DNA from: Lewinellaceae bacterium
Lineage (GTDB): Bacteria; Bacteroidota; Bacteroidia; Chitinophagales; Saprospiraceae
Direction: 5' to 3'
Length of the DNA stretch: 64,000 nt
NCBI GenBank assembly: GCA_020636105.1
Contig: JACJYL010000002.1
Coordinates: forward strand, 496,001-560,000
The notes beneath the pieces are model-generated. The model saw only the letters and a program-made list of their open reading frames with translations. It searched no databases and had not been told where the DNA came from. Each line of letters starts with the position of its first letter. Position 1 is the stretch's first letter. Positions 509-45,708 of the stretch are shown piece after piece. The translations under genes and the position numbers were made by a program.

Positions 509-511
509 TGA

Positions 512-1105
512 TTATGATTTTATCGGTTGTACAGTCTGTTTTTTGGCTTCCACTTCCTTGCGGTCCTTCATGGCCTTATTCATCATCGGGGCATAACCAA
601 TCACCATGGCAGAAATAAACATCCATTCCAAGCTGAGGCGCATTTGATACTTTTTGACCAGGGCAGCCCCAAGCTCCACCTCATAATCATTCCCCTGGAT
701 CTTCTCTTTCCGGCGCCGGTATCGGTCGCTATCCATGCCGGAGATCATTCCAAAAGAAAAAGCAAATACTTTATCTATCTGGATCAACAGAAACTCCGCC
801 GTGAATTTGTGTTCTTCGGTATAATCCAAATGGTCCGCCATTTGCTCGTCGGATTCTCCCGGGAGATCATCGTCCGGGTTATCTGGATCCATTTCGTCCT
901 GATCATCCGATTCAAAGGCCGGAGGCGGGTCGATCTTCTCCCTGGGAGCTTTCATTTCTTTTATAAATGAATCTACGTCACCCGTTGCCTGTTTGGCCGT
1001 AAAAAAATCATCGGCATTGGTGGCGGTTTGTTCCTCGATAACTTCCGCTGGTTTGATTTCCTCAACCGGTTGGGTCGGGTTTTCTTTTTCTGCTTGTTTG
1101 GCCAT
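512..1105 (-). CDS. Hypothetical acidic protein with C-terminal hydrophobic segment
   Basis: 197-aa ORF with a D/E/P-rich N-terminal half and a WMFISAMVIGYAPMM segment. Tightly packed in the minus-strand operon 1671->1. Confidence 0.6.
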   Translation of the reverse strand: MAKQAEKENPTQPVEEIKPAEVIEEQTATNADDFFTAKQATGDVDSFIKEMKAPREKIDPPPAFESDDQDEMDPDNPDDDLPGESDEQMADHLDYTEEHKFTAEFLLIQIDKVFAFSFGMISGMDSDRYRRRKEKIQGNDYEVELGAALVKKYQMRLSLEWMFISAMVIGYAPMMNKAMKDRKEVEAKKQTVQPIKS

Positions 1106-1106
1106 T

Positions 1107-1427
1107 TTATTTTGCGTTTAAAAGTTCACTTAGGGGAAAAGAAGAAAAGGGGGCACTCATGGTCATGGTCCCGTTTTCGTCCCGTTTAAGGGCATGCACG
1201 GATAAATTCAACTGTCCGTTAATAGCCACCACGCTATAAGCGATTTTATCCCAACCTTCCGGTAGTTTGCCGCCTTCGCTTTCCGGCCTTTCCATACCTT
1301 CCAATTTTTCGACAAATTGTTTTTCCAGTCCGGGAAGCATATTGGCGGCCATGCCCACCATTGCCGATTGAGGATTAAAATGTTCTTTAAAGCCCTTGAG
1401 CTTGTCCAATAGATTTTTGTCCGCCAT
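1107..1427 (-). CDS. Hypothetical protein
   Basis: 106-aa ORF with a 1-nt gap to the downstream gene. Overlaps the upstream ORF by 41 nt. Confidence 0.5.
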   Translation of the reverse strand: MADKNLLDKLKGFKEHFNPQSAMVGMAANMLPGLEKQFVEKLEGMERPESEGGKLPEGWDKIAYSVVAINGQLNLSVHALKRDENGTMTMSAPFSSFPLSELLNAK

Positions 1428-1671
1428 TGATCTTGTATTTAGTTACGAAAATATTTTTTTGCCCCATCCGGTGAGGCTCCAGGGAAATAATTTTGTTTTC
1501 GAGTAGTTTGATGATCGAAGCCCGGACCCGCCTTTCCAGGTTGTATTGTTCCCGCCTGGTTTCATAGATGTGAATGAGCAGAGCCAGCTCCCTTACTGAT
1601 AGTGCTTTGTTGGCCGTTTGCAGCTTTTTTTTGATTAAATAGCTTAAGTAGGTTCCGTACAATTCCATCAA
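1387..1671 (-). CDS. Small putative DNA-binding (winged-helix-like) protein, first gene of the leftward operon
   Basis: 94-aa basic ORF (LSVRELALLIHIYETRREQYNLERRVRASIIKLLENKII) that starts next to the palindromic divergent control region. Confidence 0.45.
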   Translation of the reverse strand: MMELYGTYLSYLIKKKLQTANKALSVRELALLIHIYETRREQYNLERRVRASIIKLLENKIISLEPHRMGQKNIFVTKYKINGGQKSIGQAQGL

Positions 1672-1676
1672 AATAG

Positions 1677-1696
1677 TTATATTTGTACAAATATAA
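1677..1696. promoter_or_regulatory. Perfect 20-bp palindrome TTATATTTGTACAAATATAA in the 45-bp divergent intergenic region
   Basis: Read directly from the sequence. Each half contains TATATTTG, which matches the Bacteroidota -7 box TAnnTTTG, once on each strand. Confidence 0.65.
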
Positions 1697-1716
1697 ACAA
1701 ATTAGTTGTAATAATC

Positions 1717-1995
1717 ATGGGTTTAAACATTTCGAATAAAGTAGTATCACCCACTGGCAAAAGAATAGACTGCCGGGTAAAAGTCTCCGGTTTATTCGTC
1801 GAACCGTATGAAATCGATTTGAGGATTCTCAGCCGTGAGGTAATAAATGAAAACCAGATTGAGGATCTGATCGACCAGGTGATCGATCGAAAAAAGAATT
1901 GGAAACAAGGCAAGAAAAATCTGTCATTGAATCTAAATGGAATCAATGCCAATGCTTATATAACCAAAATCAAAAGCGATGCAGATAACAGCTAA
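1717..1995 (+). CDS. Hypothetical protein (rightward early gene)
   Basis: 92-aa ORF that starts 21 nt after the palindrome. Confidence 0.5.
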   Translation: MGLNISNKVVSPTGKRIDCRVKVSGLFVEPYEIDLRILSREVINENQIEDLIDQVIDRKKNWKQGKKNLSLNLNGINANAYITKIKSDADNS

Positions 1996-2389
1996 AGACA
2001 CGGCCGATTTTTACAACAGCCTGTTTTTTGATGAAGAAAAGAACCTGGTGGAGCCCCATGTTTCCCTTTTCATCAAAAGCGGGGAAAATCAACTGGTTAT
2101 CCCAGACATAAAAATTACTGCCAAAAAAGAATTTCACCAGATCATTCTTGATTTCCACAACCGACTGTTAAAAAATGGGCCATTGGTATTGGAAGAGGCT
2201 GCAGAGCCTCCGAAGTCGGAAACGCCCCTGATCGACTTCAAAAGGGTGGAATACCGCGACAACGCCTATTTTGTGGAACAGCTCGATCTGGAGACGTTCA
2301 GGATCCTCAATGAAGAAAGGACTAAAGAGATCAGTTTGAAGAGTCCAACGGCAAAGGCCATCATCAAAAGATTTAAAGAAGCATTTTAA
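1979..2389 (+). CDS. Hypothetical protein
   Basis: 136-aa ORF that overlaps the previous gene by 17 nt and is followed by a strong terminator. Confidence 0.55.
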   Translation: MQITAKDTADFYNSLFFDEEKNLVEPHVSLFIKSGENQLVIPDIKITAKKEFHQIILDFHNRLLKNGPLVLEEAAEPPKSETPLIDFKRVEYRDNAYFVEQLDLETFRILNEERTKEISLKSPTAKAIIKRFKEAF

Positions 2390-2407
2390 AAAGGTTGATT
2401 GATTTAC

Positions 2408-2447
2408 AAGGCCCTCACCGCCCGGTGATGGGCCTTTTTTCGTTTTT
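2408..2447 (+). terminator. Rho-independent terminator
   Basis: Hairpin AAGGCCCTCACCG-CC-CGGTGATGGGCCTT followed by TTTTCGTTTTT. Confidence 0.7.
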
Positions 2448-2558
2448 ATACCCATCATTCGCCCCGTGTCGGTTTATCGCCTTCTATCGCTTTGCCCGAG
2501 GATGTAATTTAACATTGTGTTTTATTACGCAAACGATTTTTCATAAAATACAATTCGT

Positions 2559-3149
2559 ATGTACAATCAAAGAGTTGCAAGGCGAGTAAATAAAGTTCCT
2601 GCAAATATTCAAATGATCAACAGCCCGACGGTCGTACCCGTCTCTAAGGAGGTTGGTCCTTCCGTACCTGCCGATCCTTATATCTCCCTGACGGTAGATA
2701 CTACCGATGCCGGTATTTTGGCCCCTGTGACTGTTGTTTTGTTTGATGCCTCAATGGGCTATCAACTGGCCAATAGTTTTGCCATGAACCCACTCATCAA
2801 GATCGTAGGGAATACCGCGGTTTATCAGTTCATCCTGAACGACCTTGGATCAAGCAACGGAAGTTACTTCGACACCATCCAGCAAAGGATTGATGATGAA
2901 AACGTGGCCATGACCCAATTCGGTCACCCAATCGAGATCCACGAATCCACCAAGGGCAGTCGTCCGAGGTTGCTTCAAACCATCCATCCGGGAATGGGTA
3001 TCCACGAAGGGCAGTATCAGAAGGGTATCAATACCTTTTCTTTCCCTTTCACCGTAGGCAACAGGACCGCATTTGTATATGTCCAGGAACCTGGTATCAA
3101 GATCACCTGGGGATTCTACCAAAAGGCAGAACTGGGACGTATCAAGTAA
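2559..3149 (+). CDS. Hypothetical beta-rich protein, candidate virion structural (capsid-like) protein
   Basis: 196-aa ORF and first gene after the terminator. It has no TM segment and a composition typical of beta-sandwich proteins. The function is inference only. Confidence 0.55.
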   Translation: MYNQRVARRVNKVPANIQMINSPTVVPVSKEVGPSVPADPYISLTVDTTDAGILAPVTVVLFDASMGYQLANSFAMNPLIKIVGNTAVYQFILNDLGSSNGSYFDTIQQRIDDENVAMTQFGHPIEIHESTKGSRPRLLQTIHPGMGIHEGQYQKGINTFSFPFTVGNRTAFVYVQEPGIKITWGFYQKAELGRIK

Positions 3150-3179
3150 TCCGATTGCATAAATCGAAAAAAAAGCGAT

Positions 3180-3491
3180 ATGCTTTTACAAAATAATCCA
3201 ACCTACTCAGGGTATTACAACCCGTGGGAAGGTCAAGGCGATACAATTGACACAGGTGGCGGATTTTCTTCCCCTGCGGATGCTCCTTCCGGTTTTTGGG
3301 ACTGGTGGGGGGACCATGGAGATGAAGCAACAGATTTCGGCAAAAGTATTTTATGTATGATAAAACCGGAAACTTGCCGTCAAAATAGCGGCTATCCGCC
3401 ATCTGGTCAACCAGCGCAAAACAATACCATTATGTATGTCTTGCTGGGGATTGTAGTCGTTTTGTTGATTGTTTTCATGTTCAAAAAGTAA
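3180..3491 (+). CDS. Small membrane protein (C-terminal TM anchor)
   Basis: 103 aa; G/W/D-rich N-terminus; C-terminal IMYVLLGIVVVLLIVFMF. Confidence 0.6.
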   Translation: MLLQNNPTYSGYYNPWEGQGDTIDTGGGFSSPADAPSGFWDWWGDHGDEATDFGKSILCMIKPETCRQNSGYPPSGQPAQNNTIMYVLLGIVVVLLIVFMFKK

Positions 3492-3495
3492 TAGA

Positions 3496-3762
3496 ATGAA
3501 CAATAATCTTTCTGTAAAAAACTCAGCGATCAGGCAGTTAAATGCCAATAAAGGATATGCAGCCACCTCAGAGGTTCCTGGTAAGGAAACCGTTGAAGCC
3601 ATTGCAGCCGGATCACAAATCGAAAACAATCAGGGCTGGGACTGGAAGAAATTTGTCAACGGCACCACGGAGAAACGCACCTATTGGATTGCGGCAGGGA
3701 TTTCCCTGGCATTGATCGTGTTGTTTATCCTGGCCGTCAAATACCGTTTTATCAAACTTTAA
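3496..3762 (+). CDS. Small membrane protein (C-terminal TM anchor)
   Basis: In-frame ATG at 3496 (MNNNLSVKN...) within track ORF 3469-3762. TM segment YWIAAGISLALIVLFILAV. Confidence 0.55.
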   Translation: MNNNLSVKNSAIRQLNANKGYAATSEVPGKETVEAIAAGSQIENNQGWDWKKFVNGTTEKRTYWIAAGISLALIVLFILAVKYRFIKL

Positions 3763-3766
3763 GGGC

Positions 3767-3874
3767 ATGAGAATAACGCTAAACTGGTATATCATTGGCA
3801 TTATTGCCATTATTCTAATAATCTTCATCCGGGCCTTTGATGTAGATCAGCTACTCGGTAGGGATTCGGATTAA
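3767..3874 (+). CDS. 35-aa single-pass membrane peptide (sORF below track cutoff)
   Basis: Hand translation: MRITLNWYIIGIIAIILIIFIRAFDVDQLLGRDSD. Starts 4 nt after the previous stop. Confidence 0.4.
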   Translation: MRITLNWYIIGIIAIILIIFIRAFDVDQLLGRDSD

Positions 3875-3887
3875 AAAAATTTATACA

Positions 3888-4010
3888 ATGAAAAATTTGC
3901 ATTGGGCAGTACAGTTCATCCTTTTGTTTGCAGTCATTACAGCGGCCTTTTACGCTGGTGATGTCCTTCTCGAAAAGAGATATGCCAAAAACCTGCCGGC
4001 AGGGGAATAA
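3888..4010 (+). CDS. 40-aa single-pass membrane peptide (sORF)
   Basis: Hand translation: MKNLHWAVQFILLFAVITAAFYAGDVLLEKRYAKNLPAGE. Confidence 0.4.
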   Translation: MKNLHWAVQFILLFAVITAAFYAGDVLLEKRYAKNLPAGE

Positions 4011-4035
4011 CATTCATTCAAAAAAAGAATAGATC

Positions 4036-4182
4036 ATGTTGGAAGACTTATTCACCATCGAAAACGGCAAGGTAAAATTCACCGTAAATGTGGCCTTCGA
4101 TCCGGTCAGTGCCTTATGGCTCGCAGGTGCCATTTTTGTCGGTCTGGTGCTGGCTCTTTTGATTTATTCCAAAATTCGCTAA
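4036..4182 (+). CDS. 48-aa membrane peptide (sORF)
   Basis: Hand translation: MLEDLFTIENGKVKFTVNVAFDPVSALWLAGAIFVGLVLALLIYSKIR. The stop lies 3 nt before the next ATG. Confidence 0.4.
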   Translation: MLEDLFTIENGKVKFTVNVAFDPVSALWLAGAIFVGLVLALLIYSKIR

Positions 4183-4185
4183 ACG

Positions 4186-4563
4186 ATGAAAAGCATTTTT
4201 GTCGGTGGAATAGGTGTTTTAGGGCTTGGTTTACTGCTTTGGTATTTTTTGAAACCTCAGAAAGAAGGCAGCGACGACGCCGGAAATACCTGCATTAAAG
4301 TGAACCGCGAAAAGTTCAAGGTCAGGTGGATGGAAGACAACATTCCGGGCGGAATAATCGGGAATATTGCAAAAAGTATCTTCGGTTCTTCCGATCCAAA
4401 ATTTGGCAATATAGTCAGCGGATTTTTTAAGTCTATCGATGTATATCCGTCGGAAGGAGCTGGAAAGTATTACAAAAACCAGATCACAGCCTATTACAAT
4501 AGCCCTAACGGACTTCCCAGGTGGGAGGTGGTACAGGGGGAGCTGGCTTGTGATTCATTTTAA
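4186..4563 (+). CDS. Small protein with N-terminal TM/signal anchor
   Basis: 125 aa; MKSIFVGGIGVLGLGLLLWYFL. Confidence 0.6.
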   Translation: MKSIFVGGIGVLGLGLLLWYFLKPQKEGSDDAGNTCIKVNREKFKVRWMEDNIPGGIIGNIAKSIFGSSDPKFGNIVSGFFKSIDVYPSEGAGKYYKNQITAYYNSPNGLPRWEVVQGELACDSF

Positions 4564-4575
4564 AAAATTATCATT

Positions 4576-5001
4576 ATGGCAATCGAAAAATTTGGTTCCG
4601 GTGCTTATCAGGATTATTTCAAAATCAAAGGAAGCGGAACAACGCAGTCCATTGCCGCATTCGTCCAGGACATCGACGATGGCGGAACCGATGCGATTGA
4701 AGAAATTTACCAGGGAGCTAACCAGGGCATGGTCCTGACTTCCGGTGGAAATGTAGTGTCAATCACCGAATTCGTAAAATATGCGGAACTCGGCGGAACG
4801 GATACCATAACGGGCCAACTAATCGGTGCCGGGTCAAATGTAATTGTGGACGGAGGAGTGATGAAGAACCTGGTAGAAAAACAATCCGGCAATATCCAGG
4901 TACTCGAAGAAGGTCCTGAGATCAGCCTTTTAGAAACAGATGAACCCAGCGGCGACCTATCAGGAGGCGAGGATCCAGAAGCCAGCGATGAGCCGGAGTA
5001 G
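4576..5001 (+). CDS. Hypothetical protein with acidic C-terminal tail
   Basis: 141 aa; G/T-rich; ends DEPSGDLSGGEDPEASDEPE. Confidence 0.6.
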   Translation: MAIEKFGSGAYQDYFKIKGSGTTQSIAAFVQDIDDGGTDAIEEIYQGANQGMVLTSGGNVVSITEFVKYAELGGTDTITGQLIGAGSNVIVDGGVMKNLVEKQSGNIQVLEEGPEISLLETDEPSGDLSGGEDPEASDEPE

Positions 5002-5004
5002 TTG

Positions 5005-5038
5005 AGGGGCCAAGATGCCCCTTAATTGATTTTTTTTC
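5005..5038 (+). terminator. Possible rho-independent terminator
   Basis: Hairpin AGGGGC-CAAGAT-GCCCCT followed by TAATTGATTTTTTTT. Confidence 0.45.
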
Positions 5039-5059
5039 AAAAGTAAAATTTAAACTGTC

Positions 5060-5209
5060 ATGAGTTTATCAAATTTGACAAGTAATAAAGTGGTCCAGGT
5101 GCTTTTTGTTATCGCTGCAGTATTAAGCATAATTGTGGCAGTAAAAACCCTGAGTAAAAAGAAATGCAGTTGCAATGATGACCAAGACCTAACTCCAATT
5201 GAAACTTAA
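5060..5209 (+). CDS. 49-aa single-pass membrane protein, holin-like by position (sORF)
   Basis: Hand translation: MSLSNLTSNKVVQVLFVIAAVLSIIVAVKTLSKKKCSCNDDQDLTPIET. Overlaps the amidase start by 11 nt. Confidence 0.45.
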   Translation: MSLSNLTSNKVVQVLFVIAAVLSIIVAVKTLSKKKCSCNDDQDLTPIET

Positions 5210-5774
5210 TCCGAAAATATTATTCTTTGTCCTGGTCATTGTCTTACTGTCGGTCGTGGTGTACTACAACCTTGGAATTGGTATCAAAAATATCACCAAA
5301 TTCCTGCCAAAACACCCGACAAAACAATTTGACAAAAGGAGTTTAACTGTGATAACGGAGGCCGTGGTTCATCACACGGGCACAGATAGCAAAAGTACAA
5401 CGATTGAAAGCATTGCAAAATATCACGTTGAACCCGGCAATCATATTTGTGACGATGGATGCCCCGGAATTTCTTATCATTTTATGATAAAACCAAACGG
5501 GACCATTTACCAGGTAAACGAATTGGAAACGGTAAGTTATCAGTGTGGCGGTTGTAATTACAATACTATCGGCATTTGCCTGATTGGCAACTTTAACGAA
5601 GAGGTGCCGACTGAAAAGGCCCTGAAAGCAGTGGCCAAAACAATAAAATACGTAAACAGGAGATTAGGCCGGAGTTTGGCCATTTCCGCCCATTACGATC
5701 ATAAAAGTACATCATGTCCGGGCGACAACACCAACATGGACAAAATCATTGAAATGGTGTATCCTATGGCATGA
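5199..5774 (+). CDS. N-acetylmuramoyl-L-alanine amidase (Amidase_2/PGRP fold) with N-terminal TM anchor; endolysin candidate
   Basis: Motifs AVVHHTG, ISYHFMI..NGTIYQ and HYDHKSTSCPG (zinc-ligand pattern). N-terminal ILFFVLVIVLLSVVVYY. TTG start. Confidence 0.85.
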   Translation: MKLNPKILFFVLVIVLLSVVVYYNLGIGIKNITKFLPKHPTKQFDKRSLTVITEAVVHHTGTDSKSTTIESIAKYHVEPGNHICDDGCPGISYHFMIKPNGTIYQVNELETVSYQCGGCNYNTIGICLIGNFNEEVPTEKALKAVAKTIKYVNRRLGRSLAISAHYDHKSTSCPGDNTNMDKIIEMVYPMA

Positions 5775-5792
5775 CCAAAAAAGTATGGAATC

Positions 5793-6362
5793 ATGCAAAA
5801 TATAGAAGTTTGGGTTATCAATGATGTATCAGTCCTTCAAGGTAACAGTAGTTGCCAAAATCCTACCTATTCATCAATATGTAATAAAATTACATCTGCT
5901 TATCAATCAGCTCAAACAAATGTAAATTTAGTTGATGCCTTTGCCCTGCCTGGCAGAAGCCAGGAAATAAGTCCAGTCGTAGAATATTTCAAATTAAAAC
6001 ATTTTCCCGCCCTTGTATTTTATGATCCAGATGGTGGATTGGGCTTTTACGCTATTGACGGCAATAAGATTACTGAAAAAAGGATAAAAAAAGCCTTTGA
6101 AATGGCTGAAAATTACACCTGGGATAACGCAACTGGAGGGTATATCAATGCTGATGGTGACAATGCAAACATAACGGATGATATGGAAACAAAAATAGGC
6201 GGATTAATGGGAGGAGATTGGGGTCTTCCCCTCGGTGGAATGTGGGGCGATTGTAAATCATATCTACCTGATTCCATGGACAAGGTTTGCGACATTCCTG
6301 TATGGCTTTATGCCTTGATCCTTTTATTGATCCTTATTTTATTAATCAAAATTGTGAGCTGA
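5793..6362 (+). CDS. Hypothetical protein with C-terminal TM anchor
   Basis: 189 aa; C-terminal IPVWLYALILLLILILLIKIV. Same reading frame as the amidase, from which it is separated by TGA plus 6 codons. Confidence 0.6.
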   Translation: MQNIEVWVINDVSVLQGNSSCQNPTYSSICNKITSAYQSAQTNVNLVDAFALPGRSQEISPVVEYFKLKHFPALVFYDPDGGLGFYAIDGNKITEKRIKKAFEMAENYTWDNATGGYINADGDNANITDDMETKIGGLMGGDWGLPLGGMWGDCKSYLPDSMDKVCDIPVWLYALILLLILILLIKIVS

Positions 6363-6724
6363 TGGGATTTTGTTTAGGCGGAAAATGGTGCAGAACACAG
6401 GACTGCAAAGAACGTTGCAAAGGATGGTTTGGAGCTCAACCCGACATTGAAAGGTCATGTAAAAATGCCTGCAAGGCAAATTCTGGCTTAACCAAAGATG
6501 ATTTTTTGTGCTCGGGTAACTGGATAGATCAGCAGATCATTTTTGCGGCTTATGGATACGATCCATGCACTGGAGACAATACTACGATTGAAGATTATTT
6601 CGATCCGCTGGATGACCGGGCAAGGGAAGACGCAAAACCTGAAAAATACAAAGATTTAATCATCATAGTAGCTGCCATCTTACTATTGGCATTGGCCGCT
6701 TTGATTTATATAAAAATGAAGTAA
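6362..6724 (+). CDS. Cys-rich protein with C-terminal TM anchor
   Basis: ATG at 6362 overlaps the previous stop (TGATG). Sequence MGFCLGGKWCRTQDCKERCKGW..., C-terminal LIIIVAAILLLALAALIYI. Confidence 0.55.
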   Translation: MGFCLGGKWCRTQDCKERCKGWFGAQPDIERSCKNACKANSGLTKDDFLCSGNWIDQQIIFAAYGYDPCTGDNTTIEDYFDPLDDRAREDAKPEKYKDLIIIVAAILLLALAALIYIKMK

Positions 6725-6940
6725 ATGGAACCCGTTAGCGCGATAGCAAATGCAGTATCTGATATTTTCGGAGGAGTCGTGGCCCTCATTGAAGGAAGGC
6801 GGGAATCTAAATTTGGGAGGCTCCCGGACTGGCTCAGTCCCCGGGACTTCCAGCGCAATGACTACACCGTTGATATCATTATCGGCGCCATGCTTTTGGT
6901 GTTGATTATTGTGATCATCGGCATAACGAGAGCAAAATAA
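6725..6940 (+). CDS. Small membrane protein
   Basis: 71 aa; ATG immediately follows the TAA of the previous gene; TM segment IIIGAMLLVLIIVIIGI. Confidence 0.55.
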   Translation: MEPVSAIANAVSDIFGGVVALIEGRRESKFGRLPDWLSPRDFQRNDYTVDIIIGAMLLVLIIVIIGITRAK

Positions 6941-6952
6941 ACGATAGAGGCG

Positions 6953-7180
6953 ATGTTGAAGAATTATTTCGCAGAAAGGGCCACATTATTAGGATACAGT
7001 GGCTCGGCAACTTATTGGATCATGGAGCATTTTGAAACTGCAGCCGGAATTGTGCTTTCCGTGGCGATGATCGTTGCCTCGATCGTGCTACACGGAATAA
7101 AAATCAGGACGGCATTGAACCGTGAAAAACGTGAACAGGAAATACACGAATTGAAAATTAAAAAGGAACGAAATGGCTGA
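6953..7180 (+). CDS. Small membrane protein
   Basis: 75 aa; TM segment AAGIVLSVAMIVASIVLHGI. Confidence 0.55.
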   Translation: MLKNYFAERATLLGYSGSATYWIMEHFETAAGIVLSVAMIVASIVLHGIKIRTALNREKREQEIHELKIKKERNG

Positions 7181-7460
7181 TTTAAGCGGCATCACAGATT
7201 TGAACTTTATTGGCCTCATGCGCGGAGCTTATAAAGATCCTGTTTTTGGTCTGGAAGGAGTGGACGAGCTGGCCACTCTCGTGGAGATTCTTGAATGGCT
7301 TGGCAATAACGTCGGAGGCGGAGGCGGAGGCAGTGCAGGACCCTATGATGTTTATGACGATGATGCGGCGGCCGCATCCGGAGGGGTGCCCATCGGCGGT
7401 ATTTATGTCCGATCGGCAGCAAGCGGTTTTAGCGGATTATTGGCTCAAAGATTAATTTAA
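7173..7460 (+). CDS. Gly/Ala-rich hypothetical protein
   Basis: 95 aa; overlaps the previous gene by 8 nt (ATGGCTGA); contains a GGGGGSAG tract. Confidence 0.5.
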   Translation: MADLSGITDLNFIGLMRGAYKDPVFGLEGVDELATLVEILEWLGNNVGGGGGGSAGPYDVYDDDAAAASGGVPIGGIYVRSAASGFSGLLAQRLI

Positions 7461-7467
7461 ATTCAAC

Positions 7468-9921
7468 ATGACTATAAAAATGAACTTCTTTAAAGATAGC
7501 GACAAATGGCTTTGGATAGCCATTTTCCTGTTGTTCTCCTGGGCAGCTTCATCCCAAACGATCATCAAAGGAACGGGCATAATTTATTTTGCGGACACCA
7601 CCCAAATGAATGCCTTTGTGCCGAATATAGCCTATGCGGCGGAAATGGCCGTGGTGGTGAATAATGGCCGGCCATATACCTGGGACAGAATCCAAAGCAA
7701 ATGGGTATTGATCGATAACGGAGGCACGGACGATCAAATTTTGTCTTTCGCCGGGACTACCTTATCCATCGAGAACGGCAACAGCGTCAATCTTTCCTCC
7801 CTGCAGGATGGAACCGGGACCGATGACCAGGTGCTAAGCCTGGCCGGAACGACCCTGACCCTTGAAAACGGGGGAAGCGTCAATCTTTCGGTCCTGCAGG
7901 ATGGGACCGGGACCGATGACCAGGTGCTAAGCCTGGCCGGAACGACCCTAACCCTTGAAAACGGGGGAAGCGTCAATCTTTCGGTCTTGCAGGATGGAAC
8001 CGGTACGGATGATCAGACCCTCAACCTGGTCGGTACAACCCTTTCCATCGAGAATGGCAACAGCGTCAATCTATCTTCTGTACAAGATGGCACTGGCACC
8101 GATGACCAGACCCTTGGGCTTACCGGTACAACCCTCAGTATCGAGAATGGCAACAGCGTTAATCTGTCCTTTATTCAGGATGGAACCGGCACGGATGATC
8201 AGACTATTAATCTGGTGGGCGATACATTGAGTATCGAAAACGGTAACAGCGTAATCCTGTCTGGATTCTTGAATACGGACGATCAGACCCTGAGCCTGGC
8301 CGGAACGACTCTGTCTATTGAAGACGGCAATAGTGTGGATCTGTCCGGATTGCAGGACGGTACCGGTACCGATAACCAGACCATCAACCTGGTCGGCACA
8401 ACCTTATCCATCGAAGATGGCAACAGCGTGGATCTATCCGGATTGCAAGATGGCACCGGGACGGATGATCAAACCCTCAACCTGGTGGGCACAACCTTAT
8501 CCATCGAGGACGGCAATAGCGTGGATCTGTCTGGATTACAGGATGGCACCGGAACGGATGACCAGACTCTGGGTCTGGCAGGAACAACCCTTTCCATCGA
8601 GGACGGCAACAGCGTGGACCTATCCGGATTGCAGGATGGTACAGGAACCGACGACCAGCAGCTGAGCCTGGCCAGCAATATCCTGACACTTGAAGACGGC
8701 GGAAGCGTAAATCTTAGCGGATACCTGGACAATACCGATGACCAAACCCTCAACCTGGTCGGCACAACTTTATCCATAGAAGACGGCAACAGTGTAGATC
8801 TTTCAGGACTCCAGGATGGCACCGGCACGGATGACCAAACCCTCAACCTGGTCGGCACAACTTTATCCATAGAAGACGGAAACAGCGTGGATCTTTCAGG
8901 ACTCCAGGATGGCACCGGCACCGATGATCAAACCCTGAATCTAGTCGGCACAACTTTATCAATAGAAGACGGAAACAGCGTGGATCTTTCAGGACTCCAG
9001 GATGGCAATACTAATATTTATAATGCCAATGGCAGCTTACCGGCAGCAACGATAAGAAGCATTCAATTCGGCAGCAACGCCAGCCGTTTCAGATACCTGG
9101 ATCCTGATAACGCGGATCAGTATTTTGAACTTTTTAATAACTCTACGCTCTCAGGAAAAGCCGGAATGTACATCCTTGATGATGACCTGGGATCAAATGG
9201 AAATATTGGCGAAATTGGCCCTTCTGTTTATGGGGTTCTGACGGCGGCCACCGCCAGTGTAAAAGGAGGTTTTGCCTCCCTGATCAATACTCCCGGAACG
9301 ACATTTTTTGCAGTGGATGGTTCAAATATAGCCAGGATTCAGTCTTCCGCAGCTGATTATCGAATAGGGAACCCGGGAACTTCTGCAACCCTATTGCAAA
9401 CTTCAACACAAAGCTGGGTAGTTACCTATGATGATCATACTGGAAATTTATATAAACAAGCATTTCCAACCCCTACAACTTTAACACATTATCACGCACA
9501 ACTGGATAAGGGTAATACCTCTACCGGCGATAGTTTCACGGGTGGTTCATATAAATTTTTAGTTGGTGGATATGGTTTAAATGCGTCAGAATTAAATGGT
9601 TTTTCTTATAATTCTGGAACCGGAGAACTTACATACACAGGCGCAAGTGGAAAAAATTTTCTTATTAATATTTCTATGAATATTAAAACTTCTTCTAAAT
9701 TGACAGAAGTAGTTTTTGATCTATGGCAGGGTGGTACAATCTCTACCACCACTGGAGAATTTGTAATTTCTCCAAACACAGAAAGTTCCTGGCAAACTCT
9801 AAGTTTCAATAAAGTAGTACGTAATTTATCTACCAGTACAATATTTAAGTTTTCTCTTAAATCAACATATTCTGAAACATTAGAGTATAAAAATATACAC
9901 ATATCTTTTACTGAATTTTAA
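7468..9921 (+). CDS. Fibre/spike-like repeat protein with signal peptide (receptor-binding candidate)
   Basis: 817 aa. N-terminal WLWIAIFLLFSWAASSQ, then 14 tandem 31-aa units with consensus DDQTLNLVGTTLSIEDGNSVDLSGLQDGTGT, then a roughly 300-aa non-repetitive C-terminal domain. Confidence 0.8.
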   Translation: MTIKMNFFKDSDKWLWIAIFLLFSWAASSQTIIKGTGIIYFADTTQMNAFVPNIAYAAEMAVVVNNGRPYTWDRIQSKWVLIDNGGTDDQILSFAGTTLSIENGNSVNLSSLQDGTGTDDQVLSLAGTTLTLENGGSVNLSVLQDGTGTDDQVLSLAGTTLTLENGGSVNLSVLQDGTGTDDQTLNLVGTTLSIENGNSVNLSSVQDGTGTDDQTLGLTGTTLSIENGNSVNLSFIQDGTGTDDQTINLVGDTLSIENGNSVILSGFLNTDDQTLSLAGTTLSIEDGNSVDLSGLQDGTGTDNQTINLVGTTLSIEDGNSVDLSGLQDGTGTDDQTLNLVGTTLSIEDGNSVDLSGLQDGTGTDDQTLGLAGTTLSIEDGNSVDLSGLQDGTGTDDQQLSLASNILTLEDGGSVNLSGYLDNTDDQTLNLVGTTLSIEDGNSVDLSGLQDGTGTDDQTLNLVGTTLSIEDGNSVDLSGLQDGTGTDDQTLNLVGTTLSIEDGNSVDLSGLQDGNTNIYNANGSLPAATIRSIQFGSNASRFRYLDPDNADQYFELFNNSTLSGKAGMYILDDDLGSNGNIGEIGPSVYGVLTAATASVKGGFASLINTPGTTFFAVDGSNIARIQSSAADYRIGNPGTSATLLQTSTQSWVVTYDDHTGNLYKQAFPTPTTLTHYHAQLDKGNTSTGDSFTGGSYKFLVGGYGLNASELNGFSYNSGTGELTYTGASGKNFLINISMNIKTSSKLTEVVFDLWQGGTISTTTGEFVISPNTESSWQTLSFNKVVRNLSTSTIFKFSLKSTYSETLEYKNIHISFTEF
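7729..9006 (+). repeat. 14 tandem copies of a 93-bp (31-codon) coding repeat
   Basis: Counted directly in the translation. There are three sub-families (IENGNSVNLS, LENGGSVNLS, IEDGNSVDLS) and two shortened units. Confidence 0.95.
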
Positions 9922-9934
9922 TTAAAAAACAATT

Positions 9935-11482
9935 ATGAAACGCTTTTTGATCATTTTGATGACCGTGCTTTTTACGGTTCAGTTATTTTCCCAGGAAATC
10001 GAAATTCCCCGAAGTTACGAACGTCAAATTAAACGCCAGTCCAAAAAGGTGGAACGCCTTGAGGAAAAGCATGACGTAGTATTAGACCCGGAGGCTACCA
10101 TCCCGCTTTTACAAACCTTTGATAATGATCCGACAGCCATTGAAAACTGGGGGATAAAATACCTGGAATTTGACCAATACAGGGACAAAATCAAGGCAAA
10201 AAAAGATAAAAGGAAGGTCCTGATCGTCATCTTTGACACCGCCGGGGAATTGACGCATCCCTCACTTTTAAAGGCAGCCCTGAAAGGATATTCATACACG
10301 GGTGAACCCCTGGCGGATGAGCATGGCCACGCCACCCATGTAGCGGGAATTATGGCTTCCGATTTTACCAATATCGGGCTTTTGCAGGTTTTGATCGATG
10401 AAGGTTATGTGAAACTTCTCCCGGCCAAAATATTGCACAACCAGGGATGGGGCGATAAACCCGAAATCATTGCAGGTGTAAAGGATATTCTCAATAAAGT
10501 CCAGGTATATGTGGACAATGGATGGCTGGTGATTTTCAACAACTCCTGGGGATGATCGCAGCTGATTGAGGAATTGGTTCCCCTTTATGCGGAAGCCGAA
10601 AAAAAGGGTATTATCGTATGCGCCGCTTCCGGAAATAATGGCAGCAGTCAGGTATCCAATCCGGCCTCCATCAAAAATGTTATTGCCGTCGGGGCCTTGC
10701 AACAGAATGAAAAGGGGGAAGTGAGCCGGGCACCTTATTCCCAATACGGGGAAGCGTTGGAATTCGTGGCCCCGGGTTCTAATATTTACAGCACCTATAA
10801 AAATGGCAGTTTTGCCTTTCTTTCCGGTACCTCGATGGCAACACCGGAAGAAGTCGCTTGTCTGGCCATAACAGGGTCATACCACAGTCAAAACACCCCT
10901 TTGGAAATTGTTTCTCATGTAAGAAAAAACGCCAATGATCTTCCCCCTGCAGGTAAGGATATTTTTACAGGCTACGGAAGTACCCCCATTGGCAACCTAC
11001 TCGATAATATTCCTGAAAAAATTGGTGATGAACCCGACGACCCGGAAGATCCAGGCCAGGATAGCATTGTGATTAAAAAGGAACGCATCATTACCCTTCC
11101 GGTTAATGATCTGAAAATGGTTTGGGGTATTGGTTCCTTCAACGATCAGCGCCCTATCATGGTGGATCTGGTTTTAAATATCACTTCCAACCGCTTGGCA
11201 GAATTAACCTATGATGAGGCCGTTAATCTTGCGAATACCTTTTTCGGACGAACGGGATTGACGTTCTCAGACAAGAAGGCCGACGTTTACGACGCAGCAG
11301 AATGGACCGCAAGGTTTTACCACCGACACGCCAACGAAAAACAGGATGTTTATAAAGTAGGCATCAAACAGATTACCGTGACGGATGAAAAAGGCCGCAC
11401 ATTTACCCGGTTTGGAGAAGATCTAAAGATTTCCGAAAATGTAAGATTTGAAGATATTCCGATCCTGACGCAATTGAAGTAA
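9935..11482 (+). pseudogene. S8 (subtilisin-like) serine peptidase interrupted by one in-frame TGA at 10553-10555
   Basis: Track ORFs 9935-10555 and 10574-11482 share one frame. Catalytic D (IFDTAG), H (HGHATHVAG) and oxyanion N (NNSWG) lie before the stop; the AASGNNG block and S (GTSMATPEE) lie after it. Signal peptide MKRFLIILMTVLFTVQLFSQ. Confidence 0.75.
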
Positions 11483-11514
11483 ATCGATTTATAAAATTCA
11501 AAACCACTCACACT

Positions 11515-11733
11515 ATGTTCACTAAAGATAAAAACACAACAATCGCCGGGATACTGGCCTTTGTTTCCTTGCTGGCCGGCCAGCTTCAATCAATGTTTGA
11601 TGCAGATCCTTTGACCAATCCGGAATGGTCCTTAATTGTTTCAGCGCTTTTTGTGTTGATCGGATTGCTTAGGGCCAAAGATTCTGTAAAAGAAAATCCG
11701 GAAACAAAAGAATTGAACCGAAGAAACGCTTAA
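11515..11733 (+). CDS. Small two-TM membrane protein
   Basis: 72 aa; TM segments IAGILAFVSLLAGQL and WSLIVSALFVLIGLL. Confidence 0.5.
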   Translation: MFTKDKNTTIAGILAFVSLLAGQLQSMFDADPLTNPEWSLIVSALFVLIGLLRAKDSVKENPETKELNRRNA

Positions 11734-11831
11734 TCAAAAGGGCGGTACATTAGTTTTCATAAGTTTACAATAAGCAGCGGGTAATTCACCTTTGGGTGGA
11801 CTGCCCGTTTTTTGCTTAAACCTAAATCAAT

Positions 11832-14714
11832 ATGCCATACAATTTTTCAAAATCGGATATTCCTTACCAAACGGCTTATGAGGCCCATAGAGGCACCTCT
11901 TTTTCTCCTGAACGGCGGGCGAAGAGTGATCAGGAAAGTTATTATCAGGATTTAAAAAATGCGTATGATGAACTTCATGCCCTGGCGGTCAAATGGGATG
12001 CCGTAGATAAGTTTGAAAAGCGGTTTGGCTATTTTGTGGATGGGTATAAAAAGAGGTACCTCGATTATTTGTACAGCCAACACGGCTGGGTAAGTACCAT
12101 GATTGCGGGACCATCCAATTTCCCTGCGGCCCGGATGAATAAAAAAGGGGACCAGGTGCATAAGAAATTGAATGAACTGTTGTCTTATTACAACCTGCAG
12201 CTCAAAAAGATCAAACAGTACCTTAAACCCGCCCACCTCAAGCCGGTCAAGACCGGTCAGGATGGAGCCATCGACATCCTTCAAAAACAACTGGATGACC
12301 GCCTGGCTACGCAGGAAGCCATGAAGGCCGTCAATAAGATCGCCAAATCAAAGACCTTGAGTCGGGAGAAAAAGATCGAAAAGCTAAAAACCGATCTCAA
12401 ATTATCTGATAAGCAGATCGTCGAGGTTATGACCCCGGATTATGCCGGACGCATCGGATATCCGGGTTACCTGCTCACCAATAACAACGCCAACATCAAA
12501 AGGCTCAAAGGCCGGATCAGCGAAGAAAAGAAGCTGGCCGTTCAAAAAGACCAGGGCAACAAAGAACATACATTCGACGGCGGCATGGTGATCGAAAACT
12601 TTGAGCAAAACCGCCTGCAGATCAAACACGATGAAAAGCCCTCCAGGGAGATTATCCAGAAACTCAAAGCCCGTGGTTTTCGCTGGTCACCCTATTACGG
12701 AGTTTGGCAGCGTAATTTGAATACTACTCCGATGTTTTATGCCACCAATATTGTTGGGGAATTGACCCCGGTTGCAAAAGAACCGGAACCAGCCGAAAAC
12801 GTAGAAGATATTGAACTTTCCAAATCCGAGCAGGAAGCCATTGAAAAGCAGGTCAAAAAGCGGATGGAAGAAGTTGAAGAAGAGCCCATAAAGCCAGCAA
12901 AAAAAGAACCAGGGCAAAAAGAAAAAAATTCAACTTTAGCGGAAGAAGCAAAGATTGTCAGGGATTTCATAAAAAAGAAATGGCCCACTTCTTCCAAAAA
13001 AATAAAAGTCCTGAGCAAGGTGGATAAAAATTTATCTGCGAGAACGCATGTATTGATCGATTCCGGCAATACCCCACTGGACTATAAACTAAAAAACTGG
13101 TTTTTCAAAGTCCTGGGAGAACCAAAGGAACCCAATAATGTGGTAAAAGCTTATGGCATTGTTTTATACAGGCCCGAGCTGGTTGTCATTGTAAAGGCTA
13201 TTCAAAAAGAAAATGAAAAATCAGAGCCGGCCGAGGAAAAAGAAGAATGTTCTCGAAACTTTTACATCAATAAGATCCACACCGACCCGGCACGTTTCCA
13301 AAACCGGGAAAAACTTAACAAGGAGATCATCAACGAGATTGCGGAGAACTTCGATGCCAACCAGTTCGACCCAGTGGTGATCTGGTATGATAAGCAAAAA
13401 GAAAACTGGTTTTTATTAGCTGGCCACCACCGACTGAAAGGAGCCGAAAAAGCAGGCCGCAAGATGGTTAAAACCCGCTGCTTTGAGGGAAGTGAGGCCG
13501 AAGCCGTCAAATACGCTAAGGAACTGTCAAACGCCAACAGAACGCTGGAAACGCCAATGGAGCGGGCAAAAATATACAGGGCTGACATTCCAGGAATGCA
13601 CAAAAAGAAACTGGAAAATAAAGCTAAACGCCTGGAAGGTAAAAACTGGAATTTCATTCTTAACCTCGCATATTTAAAGCCGATAGGAAAGGTTTTAACG
13701 GCCCTGGCTGCCCTCGATCATAACAGCGACAAAACAACCCAGCAAAACCTGGAAAAGATTGCAGACTGGACGGGAGAAGCCCGCAGGATGTTTTCACAGC
13801 TCACCGATGCCCATGAAAATGAAATGTATGACTTCCTTTTGTCCAACTTTGCTAAAACTAAAAGTATTTCCCGAAAAACGGACTGGATCACCAAAATAAA
13901 TGCCATGGTCCACCGCCTGGACTTCAATCCGGACGAACCGTTAAACCTCAAAAGGATTGCCTACAAAACGCAAGGAGAAAGCGAATACGAGGCGCAGATG
14001 TTTGCCATAGACGAAGAGATCAAAGCCGTTGAGAAAAGCAAACAGGCGTTAAAGGATCGTTTTAATGATCCAAAGGTTCCTGGGTATGTTCACCCGGATC
14101 TTCCGAGTTACGAGCAAATGCAAAAAGAGGCGGAAGTTATTTCGGAAAAACTGGATCAGAAACTTAAGGCGCTGAGAAAGAAGAAACTCGACCTCATGCA
14201 GCAAAAGGGCCGAATGATAAAAGGAGGCCTGGACCAGGGAAATTTATTTGCCCAGGTAATAAACAAAGTAGATTCAAAGGTCATTGAGATCAGGAAGGAG
14301 CAAAATAGACCGTCTGGCCAGTCTTACGACCTTTTACATAAAGAAATCCACATTCTATTCAGGAAAAAAGAGGATGAACCGAATGGCTTTATTTTTGTAC
14401 GGCAAAATCTGAAATACATTAAAAACATTTTAGAAGTTGCCAAAAATGATAAGGTTGAATTTTCGACATCGGATGTTATAAAATTGGGCGTGATCATTCA
14501 GCCAATTTTGCAAGGAGATGAAGCAATAAAAAATGATGTAGGACGCTCAAATAAAAGAACGCTGGCCCCCACGTTTAATAATCTGCTCCGCTGGACAGGA
14601 AACCCCGGCAGATACGATTTAATTGGCGTAGATACCTTTAAAAATGAAAAACCGACCATCCTTGCCCGGAAGGTCAAAAAAGCACGAATATTTAATCTTT
14701 TAGGAATAAAATAA
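11832..14714 (+). CDS. Large multidomain (polyvalent-type) protein with ParB/Srx-like nuclease domain
   Basis: 960 aa. The ParB-type block is IHTDPARFQNRE...WFLLAGHHRLKGAEKAG. The N-terminal ~300 aa end in RGFRWSPYYGVWQR, which from memory resembles the DUF3560 modules of plasmid and phage proteins. Charged linkers and a long helical C-terminus follow. Confidence 0.75.
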   Translation: MPYNFSKSDIPYQTAYEAHRGTSFSPERRAKSDQESYYQDLKNAYDELHALAVKWDAVDKFEKRFGYFVDGYKKRYLDYLYSQHGWVSTMIAGPSNFPAARMNKKGDQVHKKLNELLSYYNLQLKKIKQYLKPAHLKPVKTGQDGAIDILQKQLDDRLATQEAMKAVNKIAKSKTLSREKKIEKLKTDLKLSDKQIVEVMTPDYAGRIGYPGYLLTNNNANIKRLKGRISEEKKLAVQKDQGNKEHTFDGGMVIENFEQNRLQIKHDEKPSREIIQKLKARGFRWSPYYGVWQRNLNTTPMFYATNIVGELTPVAKEPEPAENVEDIELSKSEQEAIEKQVKKRMEEVEEEPIKPAKKEPGQKEKNSTLAEEAKIVRDFIKKKWPTSSKKIKVLSKVDKNLSARTHVLIDSGNTPLDYKLKNWFFKVLGEPKEPNNVVKAYGIVLYRPELVVIVKAIQKENEKSEPAEEKEECSRNFYINKIHTDPARFQNREKLNKEIINEIAENFDANQFDPVVIWYDKQKENWFLLAGHHRLKGAEKAGRKMVKTRCFEGSEAEAVKYAKELSNANRTLETPMERAKIYRADIPGMHKKKLENKAKRLEGKNWNFILNLAYLKPIGKVLTALAALDHNSDKTTQQNLEKIADWTGEARRMFSQLTDAHENEMYDFLLSNFAKTKSISRKTDWITKINAMVHRLDFNPDEPLNLKRIAYKTQGESEYEAQMFAIDEEIKAVEKSKQALKDRFNDPKVPGYVHPDLPSYEQMQKEAEVISEKLDQKLKALRKKKLDLMQQKGRMIKGGLDQGNLFAQVINKVDSKVIEIRKEQNRPSGQSYDLLHKEIHILFRKKEDEPNGFIFVRQNLKYIKNILEVAKNDKVEFSTSDVIKLGVIIQPILQGDEAIKNDVGRSNKRTLAPTFNNLLRWTGNPGRYDLIGVDTFKNEKPTILARKVKKARIFNLLGIK

Positions 14715-14723
14715 ATTTGAATT

Positions 14724-14834
14724 ATGGAGAATGAAATTTCAACCACGCAGGTAATTATATCTTATTTAATTTTTGCAATGGTGATCGCTTTGGGTGTCAC
14801 TGTTGGGATAGCTGTTAGCAATAAGCTTTTATAG
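14724..14834 (+). CDS. 36-aa membrane peptide (sORF)
   Basis: Hand translation: MENEISTTQVIISYLIFAMVIALGVTVGIAVSNKLL. Its convergent 6-nt overlap with the integrase stop makes this a weak call. Confidence 0.3.
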   Translation: MENEISTTQVIISYLIFAMVIALGVTVGIAVSNKLL

Positions 14835-16001
14835 AAAAAAGTCAAAATCTTTTGCCACTGCAGCCGAATCCAGACCGGAGGCTCTCAAATAACTCCTTAA
14901 GGTTCTAATGTCCGTCCATCCCCCCAGGTCGGCAATTATTTTAATATTCATATTTTGCATGGCCAAATTTGTTGCTGCACTGCGCCTCGCTGTATGTGTA
15001 GTAACAAATTTCCATTTGGGGCCGCTTTCTTCTCCCTGCTTCACCTGAGCATCCACCTTCGCCAAAGCACACACCGTTTTAATATTTCTATTGCTTTGTG
15101 CATTGCTCCCAAAATCCATATCAAAGCCTCTTTTTTCCAGTATTTCCCAGGCTTCTGATTTTACCGGCACTATACATTCGTGACCGGTCTTTTGCTGTTT
15201 GTATTTCAAATAACGTTGTCCTGATTTTTCGAAAAAACTTTCCCGTTTTATGTTCCTGGAATCCTCAAACCGCATAAGGAAATAATAACTCACCAAAAAC
15301 CGATCCCTTTCCTTTTCCAGCCAGACATCACTTTCCAGATTGACGTTTTTAATCGCTTCTATTTCATCCTCGTTAAGATATATCTTGTTTGATGGTTTAC
15401 TTTGATGGACTTTGAATCTGTGGTGCTTATAAATCTCATTAGAATGCAATTCTTTATCCTCGGCAATCCTCATGACCGTTTTAATCACTTTGATGTGTTT
15501 TCCAAATCCGGGCAACCCACACCCTACCCCACCCAAAAGGAAGTTTCTGAAATTATCATAAAATTCCAGATCAATATCGTTAAAAGAAATATCCTTAAGT
15601 TTCTTTTCATCTTTGAACTGATTGATGCGAGTGATCAGGGATTTATAACTTTTTGCGGTATTAGGTTTGTGATCAGTAAACCCGTTTTGGATATCGTTGT
15701 AATAAGAGTTGAGAAAGTCGATAAAACTGGTTTGCTTGGTTTTACCGATCAAATTAATATCACCGGATTCAATTAATTGGGTTTCAATTATCCGTTTTTG
15801 TTCTCCAATTTTTGCATTGATCCGAACATGGTTAGGATGAGTTTTTTTGACAAGTCCTTTTTTATTGTCAAACTCGGAAGGTAAGACGTGAAATTTGGTT
15901 TTTATGTATTTTTTTTCACCATTTGCATTAACATACAGCTTTATGTTACAACTGCCATCAGCTCGGGGTACATAGGTCCAAAGAATAGGTTTTACTTGCA
16001 T
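14829..16001 (-). CDS. Tyrosine site-specific integrase (Bacteroidota phage-integrase type)
   Basis: 390 aa. C-terminal HTARRSAATNL (HxxR) and GGWTDIRTLRSYLR (catalytic Tyr). N-terminal arm-type domain. Adjacent to the tRNA 3' end. Confidence 0.9.
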   Translation of the reverse strand: MQVKPILWTYVPRADGSCNIKLYVNANGEKKYIKTKFHVLPSEFDNKKGLVKKTHPNHVRINAKIGEQKRIIETQLIESGDINLIGKTKQTSFIDFLNSYYNDIQNGFTDHKPNTAKSYKSLITRINQFKDEKKLKDISFNDIDLEFYDNFRNFLLGGVGCGLPGFGKHIKVIKTVMRIAEDKELHSNEIYKHHRFKVHQSKPSNKIYLNEDEIEAIKNVNLESDVWLEKERDRFLVSYYFLMRFEDSRNIKRESFFEKSGQRYLKYKQQKTGHECIVPVKSEAWEILEKRGFDMDFGSNAQSNRNIKTVCALAKVDAQVKQGEESGPKWKFVTTHTARRSAATNLAMQNMNIKIIADLGGWTDIRTLRSYLRASGLDSAAVAKDFDFFL

Positions 16002-16056
16002 CTTTGAAAAATTAAGAATTCTTTGAGGAAATAAGAAATAATTAAGAATAATTAGG

Positions 16057-16106
16057 CCAAATATACCCCAAAAAGACCAAAAAAACCCAAATACAACCCA
16101 AAAAAA
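16057..16106. repeat. Five 10-bp phased CC+A-tract units (predicted intrinsically bent DNA)
   Basis: CCAAATATAC CCCAAAAAGA CCAAAAAAAC CCAAATACAA CCCAAAAAAA, read directly from the sequence. Confidence 0.85.
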
Positions 16107-16133
16107 TAGATGTCATAAACACCTGATAATCAA

Positions 16134-16167
16134 TAAAAAAAGCCCTTGAACGTTGATATTCAAGGGC
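16134..16167 (-). terminator. Rho-independent terminator downstream of tRNA-Glu
   Basis: Minus-strand hairpin GCCCTTGAA-N8-TTCAAGGGC followed by TTTTTTT. Confidence 0.6.
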
Positions 16168-16186
16168 TTATGTCTTGGGTATTGAG

Positions 16187-16258
16187 TAGTCCGTACGGGA
16201 ATCGAACCCGTGTTACCAGGATGAAAACCTGGCGTCCTAACCCCTAGACGAACGGACC
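16187..16258 (-). tRNA. tRNA-Glu (anticodon UUC)
   Basis: Hand-folded 72-nt cloverleaf: GGTCCGT/TC/GTCT-AGGGGTTA-GGAC/G/CCAGG-TTTTCAT-CCTGG/TAAC/ACGGG-TTCGATT-CCCGT/ACGGACT/A. No encoded CCA. Position 1:72 is a G-T (G.U) pair. Confidence 0.9.
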
Positions 16259-45459: not shown

Positions 45460-45708
45460 AACTTTGAAACGGGTATAAGCTTTTATCAGTTTTATTAGCC
45501 GAAACAACAAAGCTAAATATTATTTTTACAATTACGGTAACACCAAAATTGAAAATACCCTCTCCTCATTTTTGCATCTTGCAAAAAAAATATCAGGTCA
45601 AATCAAATTATCCCCGTTTTATTTTTTATGTTGTGGGCTATTTTATATATTGGTGATATTAATTTTCATTCTACTTCTTAACTTTCAAAACGTAAAATTC
45701 CTACAACT

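Follow-up and report, generated by a model that had tools for sequence, protein, structure and literature searches.

In-frame stop codons and the S8 peptidases

The best described relatives of the gene treated here are the classical subtilisins of the S8 family in MEROPS and Pfam, represented by Savinase, subtilisin BL, Carlsberg, and BPN'. They are built on one fold and one active site, in which the catalytic residues follow each other in the order Asp-His-Ser and the oxyanion Asn is contained in an A-A-S-G-N block. The oxyanion Asn is N155 in BPN' numbering, and the N-x-S-L-G-G motif corresponds to the substrate-binding segment (BPN' 123–128). S8 peptidases are also encoded by phages and are represented there by the PHROG family phrog_3677 (“protease”) and by phage subtilases in the BFVD structure collection.

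In-frame stop codons in bacterial genes can have different origins. In selenoprotein genes an in-frame UGA and selD are accompanied by a SECIS hairpin, SelA, SelB, and tRNA-Sec, and relatives carry Cys or Sec at the same position. A tRNA-Trp with a 4-bp anticodon stem is the form that reads UGA (PMC13092985). In published surveys, bacterial in-frame stops persist mostly only at the time scales of population polymorphism, and the mobilome, with its phage and transposon genes, has more than its share of them (PMC7918605).

The locus lies in a stretch of 64,000 nucleotides (the window, C2:496001–560000) of a 6.78 Mb genome that is assembled in 2 contigs and 98.5% complete. Here, an S8 peptidase gene of an integrated phage-like element is interrupted by a single in-frame TGA (Table 1), which very probably reflects a recent ordinary nonsense mutation in a redundant provirus gene and not genetic recoding. 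The gene product shares the fold, the active site, the Asp-His-Ser order, and the A-A-S-G-N oxyanion Asn with the classical subtilisins, as well as an S-L/W-G substrate-binding segment 28 residues before this Asn. Unlike them, it is provirus-encoded and truncated by TGA at codon 207, and it shows only ~30% identity, an extra ~70 aa at the N terminus, a C-terminal α/β domain of ~140 aa, and the sequence GTSMATPEEVA in place of the usual ...PHVAG. It matches phrog_3677 with an E-value of 4.8e-39, and Foldseek aligns it to phage subtilases such as that of Bacillus phage vB_BcoS-136 (9.7e-24). Compared with these phage peptidases, the local order (fibre-like, S8, small protein, ParB-like, integrase) is found only in related Bacteroidota elements, and the role of the protein is putative. 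Only the in-frame UGA and selD are held in common with bacterial selenoprotein genes; SECIS, SelA, SelB, and tRNA-Sec are missing, and the residue in the relatives is Gly instead of Cys or Sec. The closest class is that of the in-frame stop polymorphisms described by Belinky et al. in 2021, with which the locus shares a mobile-element gene that is conserved apart from one nonsense substitution, an occurrence only among near-identical sequences, and purifying selection on the gene as a whole; nothing essential is different (PMC7918605).

Table 1. Positions of the S8 gene, its parts, and neighboring features in the window.
Feature	Position	Strand	Basis or remark
Amidase_2 endolysin	5199–5774		
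Fibre-like protein, 817 aa, signal peptide, 31-aa tandem repeats	7468–9921	+	
S8 (subtilisin-family) peptidase gene, 515 codons, one interruption	9935–11482	+	PF00082, PDB subtilisins, AlphaFold, Foldseek
N-terminal fragment ORF, 206 aa; Asp101 and His132 present, Asn234 and Ser300 absent	9935–10555	+	
In-frame TGA, codon 207	10553–10555	+	one G-to-T transversion from paralogue GGA (Gly)
Same-frame remainder, 302 aa, without Asp and His	10574–11482	+	mechanical TTG-start ORF
72-aa protein between S8 and primase/ParB-like gene			element gene order
Primase-like/ParB-like protein, 960 aa	11832–14714	+	PHROG primase 1.1e-34, ParB-like 2.7e-9; ParB_N weak
Tyrosine integrase, facing tRNA-Glu	14829–16001	-	PF00589, PF13102, PF17293
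tRNA-Glu(ttc) (16186–16258) and right att-like repeat (16124–16199)	16124–16258	-	
selD	43389–44435	-	profile over cut-off
mnmH/selU, tRNA 2-selenouridine synthase gene	44413–45510	-	profile over cut-off

Structure of the interrupted gene

The sequence at 10541–10580 reads AAC TCC TGG GGA TGA TCG CAG CTG ATT GAG around the stop. When the TGA is read as one residue, a 515-aa protein with zero further stops results, and the stop is the sole interruption in the 515 codons, in agreement with an earlier note on this DNA that had described a single in-frame TGA in an otherwise intact S8 protease. The gene encodes a signal-peptide-like N terminus, a catalytic domain (approximately residues 93–348), an acidic Pro-rich linker, and the C-terminal domain. 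Pfam PF00082 (Peptidase_S8) covers residues 93–348 in a single stretch that crosses the TGA (E 4.7e-33, 115.2 bits against a cut-off of 21.8).

The alignment with the subtilisins of the PDB (Savinase, subtilisin BL; E ~1e-27) is free of gaps between NNSWG-x-SQLIEEL... and CAASGNNG, which bears out the claim that the spacing is kept only if the TGA counts as one residue. D101 (FDTAG), H132 (GHATH), the oxyanion N234 (AASGN), and S300 (GTSMATP) are assigned by this alignment and are invariant among the homologues in the protein's own family alignment, with the triad in Asp-His-Ser order. The catalytic residues and the frame on both sides of the stop are thus as intact as had been claimed. The earlier note was mistaken in placing the oxyanion Asn in N-x-S-L-G-G, as it is the N of A-A-S-G-N. 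The conserved S-W/L-G stretch of the substrate-binding segment is followed by the Gly of codon 207, which corresponds to BPN' position 128.

The AlphaFold model of the read-through sequence has a mean pLDDT of 85 and superimposes on Savinase (PDB-ID: 5arb) with a target-normalised TM-score of 0.90 and an rmsd of 2.5 Å in Foldseek, and it takes on the subtilisin α/β fold. The C-terminal α/β domain has no family match, and its fold search returned significant matches to the subtilisin domain only. T-fold/QueD-like viral matches to this domain were weak (E ~2e-3, TM ~0.15) and are not trusted. In a scan for consensus promoters and terminators around the S8 gene, the counts matched the expectation from shuffled sequence.

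The TGA parts Asp and His from Asn and Ser, and the uninterrupted chain of an S8 enzyme is not found. By descent the window copy is thus an S8 gene, but it is predicted to lack an active enzyme product.

The provirus and its second copy

The S8 gene sits in an integrated phage-like element at a tRNA-Glu gene. A 77-bp att-like repeat (tRNA 3′ end and downstream sequence), which is 95% identical to its partner at the tRNA, is found at C2:482934–483010, ~13 kb upstream of the window, and this repeat pair bounds an element of ~29 kb. The element extends over window 1–16258 and C2:482934–496000 and encodes many small membrane proteins; a T9SS sorting domain occurs in a host gene next to it and, like the named source of one homologue, indicates a Bacteroidota host. 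The element is phage-like by its Amidase_2 endolysin and its small P-loop ATPase, for which a weak match to terminases was obtained; a PHROGs search of the element found no recognisable tailed-phage genes. The fibre-like gene ends 13 nt before the start of the S8 gene, and the two are probably co-transcribed because of this short gap.

A second, mosaic copy of the element is located at approximately C1:1088150–1115660 in the same genome, with 77–90% nucleotide identity over the shared blocks. Its integrase is different (65% aa identity) and lies ~16 kb further on. The primase/ParB-like protein has 960 aa in the window and 1271 aa in the second copy (C1:1111721–1115536), and only the C-terminal 497 aa align (90% identity); judging from this alignment, the N-terminal module is exchanged or expanded. 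The fibre-like protein is 817 aa long in the window, 782 aa in the metagenome-assembled genome (MAG) GCA_020436825.1, and 781 aa in the C1 copy, which reflects either variation in repeat number or repeats collapsed by short-read assembly. The other genes common to both elements are full length, follow each other in co-linear order, and have the same or nearly the same size; only the S8 gene is split.

A related element is present on a Logan contig, where the S8 protein is 68% identical and the local order is the same (fibre-like SASA protein, 291 aa, S8, 64 aa, 244 aa, ParB_N protein, integrase). From this shared gene order, the protease is a conserved component of the element family.

Codon 207 in the relatives and the age of the stop

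The S8 paralogue in the second element copy (C1:1109836–1111380) is uninterrupted and shares 92% aa and 90% DNA identity with the window gene. Its codon 207 is GGA, with flanks that are identical over 30 nt upstream and 22 nt downstream. Among 13 homologues (33–92% identity), the column of the TGA holds Gly in 12 and Ser in one, and a stop in none. The comparison of orthologous codons that had been proposed thus supports the view that the residue is normally Gly as far as the gene's own family and the paralogue are concerned. The broader form of the claim does not hold, since the PDB alignment places Ser at this column in Savinase and Gly is not universal in subtilisins.

Even distant S8 homologues (30–34%) occur in only 5 of 200 genomes of the host family, and none was found in the one other genome of the same genus that was searched. 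Such a sporadic distribution is expected for a mobile-element gene. Among the matches in these 200 genomes, an internal TGA is seen only in the window copy, and one distant homologue contains a TAA.

The paralogue pair differs in 88 synonymous and 41 nonsynonymous codons (dS 0.37). The dN/dS ratio against the paralogue is 0.112 for codons 1–206 and 0.107 for codons 208–515, and polarization with six outgroups assigns 12 derived residues to the TGA copy and 16 to the paralogue. There is no detectable relaxation of constraint in the TGA copy. Together with the 100% identity of S8 in three assemblies and the intact co-linear genes, this points to a mutation on the time scale of a strain or population.

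The paralogue has peculiarities of its own. Two Gly residues that are otherwise invariant are replaced in it, Gly131 immediately ahead of the catalytic His by Cys (EHCHATH vs EHGHATH) and Gly340 by Asp. This same protein is found on 8 contigs of several metagenomes, and a close variant of it from another sample keeps Gly131. Both S8 copies of the genome, the TGA copy and the C1 paralogue, may thus be functionally impaired, and Cys131 and Asp340 hint that the protease may be under weak selection in the lysogen generally.

Authenticity of the stop

The TGA is found in two further assemblies. Contig k141_81227 of ENA ERZ27309364 is 100% identical to window 9504–11528 (2025 bp), TGA included. In the fragmented short-read MAG GCA_020436825.1, contig JAGQXB010000164.1 contains the 206-aa ORF with the TGA and the first part of the remainder, and contig JAGQXB010000137.1 contains the rest of S8 together with the ParB gene, the integrase, and host flank; the intact S8 paralogue is on contig 200 of this MAG. 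Eight nearby differences separate the MAG from the window, all of them outside S8, and the MAG is therefore not a mere copy of the window assembly. It breaks inside S8, with contig 164 running up to window 10693 and contig 137 from 10570 on. At this point the paralogues share an identical stretch of >100 nt, and the break is a fork of the assembly graph, not biology.

The identical 206-aa product is called in both assemblies besides the window genome, the exact 302-aa fragment is likewise on record outside it, and the TGA allele is confined to these three assemblies (99.9–100% identity), which may come from the same or related samples. Exact-pattern scans of metagenome and genome contig collections, with N at the mutated base, found no intact version of the exact allele. 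In the 90% protein cluster, the only members are the paralogue type, one variant of the paralogue, and the 206-aa fragment. As no intact version of the exact allele is on record, the TGA may be fixed in the lineage rather than a rare variant. On the agreement of the assemblies, the T at 10553 is probably genuine.

Decoding of UGA in the host

Genes for the decoding of UGA were searched in the whole genome. The selA profile (TIGR00474) had no match, and the best match to selB (TIGR00475) reached 179 bits against a cut-off of 242 and covered only profile positions 2–265 of 581, as is expected from other translational GTPases. The earlier observation that neither gene is visible in the window thus extends to the genome. 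The best tRNA-Sec candidate (RF01852) scored 43.3 bits, below the gathering score of 47, and ARAGORN called no SeC tRNA and no tRNA with the anticodon tca (UCA) among the 39 tRNAs of the genome. The suggested genome search for selA, selB, tRNA-Sec, and suppressor tRNAs hence returned nothing over cut-off.

The host does carry selD, as had been stated. The selD and mnmH/selU profile scores (523 bits for NF002098, 371 bits for NF008750) are both over their cut-offs, and the two genes form an operon with an overlap of 23 nt. The adjoining mnmH/selU explains the host selD by the use of selenouridine in tRNA, which is the standard use of selD in organisms without Sec. Judged by its gene content, the genome has the selenouridine trait but lacks that for selenocysteine.

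UGA is in normal use as a stop. Release factor RF2 (prfB) is present (470.7 bits against a cut-off of 370), and TGA terminates 462 of the 2108 ORFs of ≥350 aa (22%). A T follows the TGA in 233 of these 462 ORFs, which makes the context of the S8 stop the commonest genuine one. Among the stops that part two long open stretches in the same frame genome-wide, TGA accounts for 64 of 290 (22%) and shows no excess over ordinary stops, although this list consists mostly of adjacent genes that share a frame by chance and is only weak evidence. The tRNA-Trp(cca) is present as a single copy, and its anticodon stem has the canonical 5 bp. The folding energy of the 81 nt that start with the stop is not beyond chance, and no SECIS-like hairpin or other structure was found there (minimum free energy -18.2 kcal/mol against a shuffle mean of -20.35 kcal/mol, z +0.74), and no Rfam match was found downstream of the TGA at E-values up to 1. 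The tmRNA of the host (C2:66094–66470, minus strand) has an ARAGORN tag, AAHQPTLRLAV, that looks unusual, and its resume codon may be mis-set.

Origin of the stop and alternative readings

Two features expected of a recent nonsense pseudogene are found at this locus, as the stop is one substitution away from the sense codon of the relatives and the allele occurs only among near-identical sequences. In the proposed sequence of events, a single G-to-T transversion changed codon 207 from GGA (Gly) to TGA. As TGA is an ordinary RF2-read stop in the host, translation should end after residue 206. The signal-peptide-bearing fragment would contain Asp and His, would lack the oxyanion Asn and the nucleophile Ser, and should be catalytically dead. 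No restart could give an active enzyme because the first in-frame downstream ATG (10835) comes after Ser300. Basal near-cognate read-through of the S8 stop may occur, and misreading of UGA by tRNA-Trp would presumably place Trp at the family-conserved Gly beside the substrate-binding strand. A useful amount of full-length S8 protein is probably not made. The mutation is probably tolerated since the gene is an accessory one with a paralogue in the same genome; the paralogue probably covers the function, and the TGA allele appears to be neutral or only mildly deleterious. The option of a very recent nonsense mutation, raised in the earlier note, is thereby favored by the GGA of the paralogue, the Gly of the homologues, the dN/dS of ~0.11 before as well as after the stop, and the otherwise intact element.

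The other options of that note were a sequencing error, recoding, and programmed read-through. An error in sequencing or assembly, with G as the true base and the S8 gene intact, would fit a single-base difference from the paralogue and the paralogue-identical stretch just downstream, at which the short-read MAG breaks. It is nevertheless highly improbable, as the same T is present in the 2-contig genome, the fragmented MAG, and the k141 metagenome contig, no paralogue could donate a TGA by chimeric assembly, and an identical substitution error is improbable across assemblies made by different methods. The probability is practically negligible that UGA is recoded as Sec or reassigned genome-wide, either to Gly as in code 25 or to Trp as in code 4. 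The selD gene in the genome would suit the former, and the expected Gly is the meaning of UGA in code 25. Against Sec stand the unfound selA, selB, and tRNA-Sec, the pairing of selD with mnmH/selU, the missing SECIS-like hairpin, and homologues with Gly (12/13) or Ser instead of Cys or Sec, and a selenoprotein gene was rejected on these grounds. Reassignment is contradicted by the presence of RF2, the 22% of long ORFs that end in TGA, the absence of a tRNA with a UCA anticodon, and the ordinary TGA share among same-frame interrupting stops (64/290). Codes 4 and 25 were rejected on this basis, as was suppression by a 4-bp-stem tRNA-Trp given the 5-bp stem. Programmed read-through is likewise unsupported, since the stop is conserved in no orthologue or paralogue, its TGA-T context is ordinary, and a downstream structure or Rfam motif is lacking.

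A weaker form of read-through is the least improbable of the alternatives, albeit still unlikely. Here, the tRNA-Trp(CCA) would decode the stop at a low level and yield a Trp207 protease, so that the allele is kept as a down-regulated but functional one. Among bacterial stops UGA tends to be the leakiest, the allele is present in three assemblies with no intact version of its type on record, and the part downstream of the stop shows no decay. It has also been argued that many in-frame stops are read through (Belinky et al., PMC7918605). The lack of decay is, however, equally expected if the mutation is much younger than the paralogue divergence (dS 0.37). Moreover, no orthologue has kept a stop at this column, the TGA stands in the commonest genuine stop context of the genome without a stimulatory structure or motif, the tRNA-Trp has the ordinary 5-bp anticodon stem and not the 4-bp form, and the replacement of a Gly conserved in the family by the bulky Trp, near the substrate-binding segment, would probably be harmful. 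It is more doubtful still that the TGA allele is maintained as a regulatory nonsense allele, with read-through or the 206-aa fragment giving a selectable, attenuated provirus function. If such regulatory reading were true, it could dose a protease that harms the lysogen, or down-regulate the downstream replication/ParB gene by polarity.

Significance

With a recent nonsense mutation as the preferred explanation, the S8 gene should be annotated as a pseudogene or interrupted CDS rather than as recoded or encoding a selenoprotein, and the host selD should be credited to the selenouridine pathway. Beyond annotation the mutation has little significance; nonsense mutation in a mobile-element gene is already-known biology. 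It serves as a worked example of how an in-frame UGA is cleared of recoding by the codon of the relatives, the inventory of Sec and suppressor genes, the presence of RF2, the usage of stops, dN/dS before and after the stop, and independent assemblies. Of greater biological interest is the tail-less-looking family of Bacteroidota proviruses to which the element belongs, and which is present here in two diverged copies.
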